From Escherichia coli (GTDB lineage Bacteria > Pseudomonadota > Gammaproteobacteria > Enterobacterales > Enterobacteriaceae), in NCBI RefSeq assembly GCF_002854065.1, contig NZ_CP024147.1: a stretch of DNA of 64,000 nt; one strand, given 5' to 3'. A program made the position numbers and the translations under genes. Below, in pieces: positions 60,822 through 62,706 of the stretch. The notes below the pieces were generated by a model. It was not told where the DNA came from, made no database searches, and saw only the letters and a list, made by a program, of their open reading frames with translations. Numbering within the stretch: the first letter of the stretch is position 1; each line of letters begins with the position of its first letter.

Positions 60822-62105
60822 TTACAGACTTCTGGAAGGTTGCGCAGCTCTTACAACACGCGGTTGATCTTCCGCAGCGTCTTCCAGTGCACTTAAATCA
60901 CGGTCTTTCACTTCTGGCATTTTCAGCGCAGAGATTAAACCAATCACTGAATATGCCATGATCATAATGGCGATTGGATACCAGGATTCCGTCATGGTGC
61001 AGAAAATACCTGCCAGGATAGGACCAAAACCGGAAGCGATAAGACCACCAATTTCTTTTGAAATAGCCATCCGGGTAAAGCGGTTTTTACAACCGAACAT
61101 TTCTGCCATGGTAATGTTTTCCAGAGCAAATAATCCCAGCACCGCACAGTTATGAATCACAATCAGTGCAACCATAATCGTGCTCGGGGCATAGCTTTTA
61201 TCTACGATGATAGAAAGCATTGGCCATGCCAGCACAATCGCGGAGGTATTCATAATAATATACGGGATCCGGCGACCAATTTTATCGGATAACCAACCAA
61301 GGAACGGAATGGTCATAAAGCCGAGAATCGAACTAATCATCAATGCATCTGTTGGAATTGCTTTGTTAAACAATAACGTCTGCACTAAATAGCCTGCAAG
61401 GAAAGTCTGAATTAACCCGGAGTTACCCGCCTGACCAAAACGCAGCCCTGTTGCCAGCCAGAAGGATTTGCTCTGGAACATGCTACCAGCAGGTGCAGGT
61501 TTTGCTGTCGGTTGGTTGCTGTCATTAACCTTCTCAAAGACCGGGCTTTCTTTCAGATTCATACGTAACCAGATAGCAAAGACCATCACGACAACGCTCG
61601 CCAGGAACGGTATACGCCATCCCCACGCCAGCAGTTCCTCTTTACTGAGAATGAAGAACATAAAGGCCCAGATTGCCGTTGCGCTCAAGGTTCCGCAGTT
61701 AGTTCCCATAGCTACAAATGAGGAGATAATTCCGCGCTTACCTTTTGGCGCATATTCCACCAGCATCGTACCGGCACCGGAAATTTCCGCACCTGCACCC
61801 AACCCCTGAATAATACGCAGCGTCACCAGCAAGATGGGGGCAAAAACACCAATCTGTGCATAGGTCGGTAACACTCCAATTAAGGTGGTACAGATCCCCA
61901 TCATGGTGATGGTAATAAAGAGCACTTTTTTACGCCCTATTCTGTCGCCCATTTTGCCGAAAATAAATGCTCCGACAATACGCGCCACATAACCTGCACC
62001 GTAGGTTCCCATTGCCAGAATTAACGCCATTGCCGTTGATGATTCAGGAAAAAATATTTCATGAAACACTAACGCTGCGCCGAGCGAATATAACTGGAAA
62101 TCCAT
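60822..62105 (-). CDS. ydfJ: MFS metabolite:H+ symporter, probably N-terminally truncated at the prophage junction
   Basis: 427-aa ORF beginning MDFQLYSLGAALVFHEIFFP, which corresponds to the region after TM1 in related transporters; upstream sequence is AT-rich prophage DNA. Confidence 0.75.
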   Translation of the reverse strand: MDFQLYSLGAALVFHEIFFPESSTAMALILAMGTYGAGYVARIVGAFIFGKMGDRIGRKKVLFITITMMGICTTLIGVLPTYAQIGVFAPILLVTLRIIQGLGAGAEISGAGTMLVEYAPKGKRGIISSFVAMGTNCGTLSATAIWAFMFFILSKEELLAWGWRIPFLASVVVMVFAIWLRMNLKESPVFEKVNDSNQPTAKPAPAGSMFQSKSFWLATGLRFGQAGNSGLIQTFLAGYLVQTLLFNKAIPTDALMISSILGFMTIPFLGWLSDKIGRRIPYIIMNTSAIVLAWPMLSIIVDKSYAPSTIMVALIVIHNCAVLGLFALENITMAEMFGCKNRFTRMAISKEIGGLIASGFGPILAGIFCTMTESWYPIAIMIMAYSVIGLISALKMPEVKDRDLSALEDAAEDQPRVVRAAQPSRSL

Positions 62106-62706
62106 AATTCACAGGTGTTTTTTCCCATCCTGTGGTTTCCTTGGCGTTTTCTAGGTTTTTTCAGATAGTTGCATTTTTTTAAAAGCATCCTAAGTTCGAT
62201 CTCAGTGTCTATCTGGGGCCTATTTCTGTCCCATATATGCCCCAAAAAACTCCCCAACAGATAAGTAGTTTTTTCATGGATTTACGCGTAAAATCAATAA
62301 CGGCTGGAAATCATTCAATACTCGCACTATCGAAAAATTTACCAGCCAACCGCAGCACGTTCTTGCATAAGGTGTGTCTGCGGTTTTTCAACTATTCAGA
62401 TACATCACTCCCATCACATTCATTCCTCCACATCAAAGGCATATAGGCTATATCACCTTGATATTTTTCTTCTTCAGATAAAAACTGTTATCTATGTATA
62501 CTTTTAAACCCAATCCGTGTAGAGTCTCTGCATAAGATAGTTTGCAGTTGCCACTTCAGATTGCGCCATAAACCGCCTGATTTTTGCCGCCACCTGTTAG
62601 CATTCCTGTATACCTGAAACGACAATGTTTATCTACGAACTTTAAGAACACCCAAGATAAAATTGTCAACTATATCATATATAACACATTACTAATTCGA
62701 GGCTAT

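Follow-up and report, generated by a model that had tools for sequence, protein, structure and literature searches.

Is the transporter gene near the right end of this stretch of Escherichia coli DNA a complete gene, or is it what remained of ydfJ after a prophage had integrated into it? The minus-strand open reading frame at positions 60822-62105 of the window (the whole stretch of 64,000 nucleotides that was analysed, from contig NZ_CP024147.1) has a product of 427 aa that begins with MDFQLYSLGAALVFHEIFFPESS... and matches the Pfam domains MFS_1 (PF07690, E 5.9e-37) and Sugar_tr (PF00083, E 3.5e-24). Such proteins are related to the MHS (metabolite:H+ symporter) family of MFS transporters, examples of which are ProP, KgtP and ShiA. 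The following features of the window are relevant to the question.

59273-60733, minus strand: ydfI, downstream of ydfJ.
60822..62105, minus strand: ydfJ remnant, from the list of open reading frames; 427 codons plus stop, an MHS-family MFS transporter without its first 28 codons.
62097..62111: att core of the right prophage junction, from a four-way site comparison; plus strand GAAATCCATAATTCA, ydfJ sense strand TGAATT-ATGGATTTC.
62112..64000: right arm of a Qin-type prophage, AT-rich, extending past the end of the window.
62707-62820, plus strand: ynfT, a 37-aa protein of the YnaM/YnfT family (PF23676, E 6.5e-28; RefSeq).
62889-63122, plus strand: ydfK, 77 aa, annotated by RefSeq as cold shock protein YdfK on an identical stretch; no Pfam match.
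63439-64000, plus strand, running off the window: pinQ, a serine recombinase (DNA invertase family), annotated as pinQ in K-12 and in strain 100416.

Our reading is that a cryptic lambdoid prophage of the Qin type integrated in ydfJ and that window positions 62097-62111 constitute an attR-type junction; we put the probability of this at about 97%. A direct comparison is offered by the prophage-free E. coli strain AHM8C212RI (locus L001), in which ydfJ is followed by rspB, rspA and ynfA, all on the same strand. Intact ydfJ is 1368 nt long there (455 aa), compared with 1284 nt in the window. Exactly 28 codons (84 nt) are missing from the window copy; they encode MTIEKHERSTKDLVKAAVSGWLGTALEF, which in the intact protein forms the N-terminus and is followed by MDFQLYSL. 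The first-pass annotation had estimated the loss at about 30 N-terminal codons, so the loss itself stands, but the figure is corrected to 28 by alignment with the intact locus. Compared with L001, the window matches base for base up to 62107 (or up to 62111 with a 1-nt indel) and is unrelated beyond. The frame at 60822-62105 and this break in homology at 62107-62111 bear out the earlier proposal that the 5' end of ydfJ is cut at a prophage junction. The corresponding stretches of K-12, CRE444, A8 and 100416 are labelled in RefSeq as MHS family MFS transporter YdfJ, 'incomplete; missing N-terminus'.

Relatives of YdfJ provide independent information on where the protein should start. Orthologues from Citrobacter, Enterobacter, Lelliottia, Leclercia and Superficieibacter are 454-460 aa long, and the segment DLVKAAVSGWLGTALEF is almost invariant among them. 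The family alignment, obtained from an exhaustive HMMER search of 1.84 billion representatives together with four close orthologues, comprises 123 members at 30-84% identity. In this alignment YdfJ query positions 13-28 have ungapped coverage in every sequence. Two residues of the deleted part are nearly invariant, G23 (122 of the 123 sequences) and E27 (120); position 29 is Tyr in 104 of them and Met in only 8. Alignment with full-length relatives had been set beforehand as a test of the truncation, and it came out in favour of it: none of the 122 full-length relatives in the family alignment begins at Met29, and the segment upstream of that residue is conserved.

To locate the junction precisely, we compared four sites, namely attB (L001), the K-12 attL (rspB side), the K-12 attR (ydfJ side) and the window. 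A repeat, TGAATT(T)ATGGATTTC, is present at both ends of the K-12 prophage and also at the window junction. On the ydfJ sense strand, attB reads ...gcgcttgAATTTATGGATTTCcagtta..., the K-12 attL ...gcgcttgAATTTATGGATTTCaagagt... and attR, in K-12 and the window alike, ...cacctgtgAATT-ATGGATTTCcagtta.... The core is also written as TGAATTTATGGATTTC, and the overlap region would lie within TATGGATTTC. In attL the host AATTT with its extra T is retained and the phage 'aag' is gained; attR has the phage AATT with the shorter T-run and retains the host 'cag'. These flanking polymorphisms point to a single reciprocal exchange confined to (T)ATGGATTTC, at 62097-62106 of the window. The window and K-12 are colinear through the junction and both leave the intact locus at the same base. 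Moreover, in split-site genomes the two halves overlap by 16-19 nt in BLAST coordinates, which agrees with the core. The first-pass annotation had named the lack of a prophage att site as an observation that would count against integration; instead, a shared att core was found flanking the K-12 element. The ATG that opens the remnant frame (62103-62105) is the native Met29 codon and lies inside the att core, and it is only because of this position that the remnant resembles a complete gene. Just inside the phage arm, by the att core, there is also a perfect 6-bp inverted repeat (CACAGG / CCTGTG with a 13-nt spacer, window 62110-62134), which is too short to read as an integrase-binding site and may be due to chance.

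On the other side of the junction, the right arm has no homology with the uninterrupted locus when aligned with L001. It is 98.5% identical to K-12 Qin (over 2.5 kb) and 100% identical to strain 100416. The G+C content is 0.31-0.41 between 62000 and 63350, compared with 0.44-0.51 inside ydfJ. The pinQ product has a Resolvase domain (residues 4-144; PF00239, E 3.7e-36) followed by a C-terminal HTH_7 (residues 147-186; PF02796, E 2.3e-10), which is the arrangement of the serine recombinases/DNA invertases of the Pin, Gin and Hin group. The description of this DNA in the first-pass annotation, as AT-rich prophage DNA upstream of ydfJ with ydfK and a pin-family invertase, is thus in line with both its base composition and the Resolvase and HTH_7 matches. 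The window does not extend to the invertible tail-fibre segment of pinQ (tfaQ side). A 69-aa open reading frame (62237-62446, plus strand), unannotated in K-12 and 100416, is located between the junction and ynfT. Of the prophage, the window includes no more than about 1.9 kb, and neither an integrase nor a second att site is present there. A search of the window for the 84-nt 5' fragment of ydfJ did not find it, and an Rfam scan of 58000-64000 gave nothing at the gathering threshold.

The other end of the prophage can be followed in K-12 and in the nearest relative of the window. In K-12 the missing 84 nt are at positions 6114-6197 of the locus (L005), where they follow directly on rspB. Next comes a tyrosine integrase pseudogene, which lies beside attL and is interrupted by IS2; the 3' part of ydfJ is about 20.5 kb away. 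The window is not K-12; it is most similar to a strain from Gambia, 100416, with identities of 100% over 2.5 kb and 99.9% over 25 kb. The prophage in the window resembles K-12 Qin in having the same ydfJ breakpoint to the base, the same att core and a right-arm ynfT-ydfK-pinQ at 98.5%. In contrast to K-12 Qin, the prophage of 100416 is a remnant of about 13 kb (20.5 kb in K-12) with tail genes instead of nohA. Strain 100416 lacks the K-12 segment L005 3251-16079, which covers ynfA, rspA, rspB, the 5' ydfJ fragment and the integrase/attL and reaches into ydfT. The replacement (L004 30165-33796, about 3.5 kb) consists of an IS3 remnant, a group II intron (ltrA) and an ISEc31 remnant, and this block would map about 11-13 kb past the right end of the window. 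Neither the 84-nt fragment nor the integrase was found in the 49.5 kb of 100416 that were searched. Hence the other prophage end and the displaced 5' fragment, proposed earlier as a check, turned up in K-12 by rspB and the integrase pseudogene, but not in 100416, where they have been replaced. Judging by this relative, the displaced fragment of ydfJ probably no longer exists in the lineage of the window. If the window genome resembles 100416, the partner fragment and rspAB are deleted, and excision could therefore never restore ydfJ.

We also asked how common such junctions are, by searching 5426 complete E. coli genomes by megablast with positions 60700-63200 as the query. In 1986 of the 5426 the query aligns colinearly from end to end, with the same ydfJ-ydfK junction. 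In many other genomes, AHM8C212RI among them, the match ends at query position 1412, which corresponds to window 62111. An uninterrupted 300-bp attB region is present in 2009 genomes (about 37%), and most of the others have it as two separate halves. Different prophages occupy the site. CRE444 (L002 5407-9665) has an identical ydfJ breakpoint and shares about the first 260 bp of the arm, followed by tail genes. A8 (L006 4407-7546) again has the identical breakpoint, with a DinI-like fragment, a DUF4376 gene and different tail-fibre genes. In other words, ydfJ is a much-used lambdoid integration hotspot, and the attR-side arm seems to be a module common to otherwise mosaic phages.

The effect of the junction on the protein depends on where the cut falls with respect to the first transmembrane helix (TM1). 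The limits of TM1, which is amphipathic, could not be made out in a Kyte-Doolittle hydropathy scan, and a PDB sequence search gave only distant MFS matches (E about 1e-5) that were of no help in placing it. An AlphaFold model based on 16 close orthologues was unusable (pLDDT 40.5) and was superseded by a run with the 123-sequence alignment, which yielded a model of intact YdfJ with pLDDT 93.7 and pTM 0.91. The model shows the standard MFS arrangement of 12 helices and resembles XylE most closely (4gby, TM-score 0.77); its helix 1 comprises residues 10-45. According to this model, Met29 lies halfway along TM1, so that helix 1 itself is cut. The first-pass annotation had placed the MDF...FFP motif after the first transmembrane helix; this placement is not upheld, since the model puts the motif in the second half of helix 10-45. 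The remnant retains 17 of the 36 helix-1 residues; the cytoplasmic tail and residues 10-28, including G23 and E27, are gone. Likewise, the Pfam MFS_1 match begins at profile position 2 in the intact protein and at position 33 in the remnant, so that positions 2-32 are lost. Intact YdfJ is like the MHS family in its MFS_1 and Sugar_tr domains, its 12-helix XylE-like fold and its TM1 motif G-x3-E-x2-D-F-x2-Y. Unlike complete MHS members, the window copy is without the N-terminal tail and TM1 residues 10-28, and thus without the complete 12-helix architecture and an intact TM1 G...E..DF motif. The window protein is therefore a gene fragment of an MHS family member and not a complete member.

The rest of the protein is almost unchanged. 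The sole substitution between window ydfJ and the intact allele is A144V in intact numbering (window 61675, remnant codon 116), which gives TMLVEYAP in the window in place of the TMLAEYAP of intact YdfJ. Alanine occupies this column in all 15 of the remaining aligned sequences, of which one is the intact E. coli allele and 14 are orthologues in other genera. As a single observation, the substitution possibly fits relaxed constraint on a pseudogene.

Based on these comparisons, the following course of events can be proposed. Site-specific recombination, presumably by a tyrosine integrase, brought the prophage into an attB that lies within ydfJ codons 26-32, with the exchange falling inside (T)ATGGATTTC. 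The 3' 1284 nt of ydfJ were left beside ydfI and are now preceded by phage DNA, and the first 84 nt, with the upstream rspA-rspB, were carried to the far side of the prophage. The remnant has thereby been left with neither a start nor a ribosome-binding site of its own; it has also been parted from the co-directional rspAB and lacks the first half of TM1. Where no prophage is present, rspA, rspB, ydfJ and ydfI follow one another in the same direction, separated by 11, 57 and 88 nt; the prophage cuts ydfJ-ydfI off from whatever drives rspAB. The integration of a Qin-like prophage into ydfJ, as put forward in the first-pass annotation, is consistent with the intact 455-aa alleles, the 84-nt fragment in K-12, the att core and the absence of starts at Met29. 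The ydfJ remnant is best read as a pseudogene, one presumably without function. We take it that the GenBank and EcoCyc records for K-12 also have ydfJ as a pseudogene interrupted by Qin.

There are other ways to look at the locus. The 427-aa frame might be a genuine full-length gene, as in the early K-12 annotation, with the AT-rich DNA upstream of it being ordinary intergenic sequence. After all, the frame is open, it starts with ATG, and both MFS_1 and Sugar_tr still score. However, the gene has 455 codons in the 2009 genomes with an uninterrupted site, the conserved upstream segment is present in all the orthologues and in 122 of 122 family members, MFS_1 profile positions 2-32 are lost, and the cut is in the middle of helix 1. 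The surroundings of the ATG speak against it as well: direct reading of the sequence revealed no GGAGG-like element 5-13 nt upstream (cacctgtgaatt), and promoter-like sites are not above chance. Specifically, a promoter/terminator scan of 61900-63500 found 7 sites compared with 6.3 expected in shuffled sequence, which by itself argues neither for nor against a promoter. The full-length interpretation is refuted by the intact alleles, and we regard it as having hardly any chance of being correct. Just as improbable, in our estimate, is that the 5' end of ydfJ was lost through an unrelated deletion or IS event, the prophage being merely adjacent and not integrated site-specifically. The far side in 100416 has indeed been remodelled by the IS3 / group II intron / ISEc31 block. 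Nonetheless, K-12, CRE444, A8 and 100416 are interrupted at exactly the same base of ydfJ despite their different prophage contents, and K-12 retains the 84 nt at the far end together with a duplicated core and an adjacent integrase gene.

A different question is whether the truncated protein is still made, through prophage read-through or from a cryptic promoter, and works with 11.5 helices. The remnant frame is open in very many genomes (the 427-aa cluster has 3723 member sequences) and the window copy carries just the one amino-acid change. In addition, one RNA-seq study (a preprint) lists ydfJ among the genes differentially expressed after DicC induction, so some transcription of the remnant is possible. 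On the other hand, half of TM1 is gone, including G23 and E27, both of them near-invariant; neither a ribosome-binding site nor a promoter can be recognised, and A144V affects an otherwise invariant column, as relaxed constraint would give; the openness of the frame may simply reflect recent, repeated insertion. Retained function thus seems very unlikely, if slightly less so than the two preceding explanations, and we keep to integration of a Qin-type prophage with a ydfJ pseudogene as its outcome. It is tempting to speculate that prophage occupancy is kept for some benefit, with the shortened YdfJ, or the uncoupling of ydfJ-ydfI from rspAB, altering sugar-acid uptake or starvation signalling. 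We give this idea very little credence. The rspAB-ydfJ-ydfI genes have reportedly been linked to L-gulonate catabolism by Wichelecki and colleagues (2014, in Biochemistry), which we did not use as evidence; our literature search for such a link found nothing usable.

The junction of Qin (Kim) in ydfJ is ordinary and has already been published. Qin was described as site-specifically integrated at the 5' end of ydfJ, with loss of the promoter and truncation of 28 N-terminal codons, and as present in 48% of 638 strains (PMC6379469). Furthermore, ydfJ is the Qin insertion site in strains W, K-12, B and Crooks (PMC3032704), and a lambda-like prophage was reported 'between ydfJ and rspB' in strain SE11 (PMC2608844). 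Qin is like e14 (in icd) and Rac (in ttcA), which are also lambdoid, with attB in a coding sequence and a short gene-derived core duplicated at their ends (PMC6379469). However, e14 and Rac restore or replace the coding end, and the host gene stays functional (PMC6379469), whereas the Qin core contributes ATGGATTTC alone, which leaves the 28 lost ydfJ codons unrestored. To this picture our analysis makes small additions only: the core at base level, frequency figures for 5426 genomes and the likelihood that the partner fragment has disappeared from the lineage of the window.

If occupancy of the site did bring the benefit speculated on above, it might account in part for the presence of a prophage there in about 60% of complete E. 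coli genomes and for the remnant frame staying open. For annotation, the finding means that the 427-aa open reading frame is to be treated as a ydfJ pseudogene fragment and the window from about 62106 onward as prophage. It also means that a base-level att core is now available for a very busy integration hotspot.
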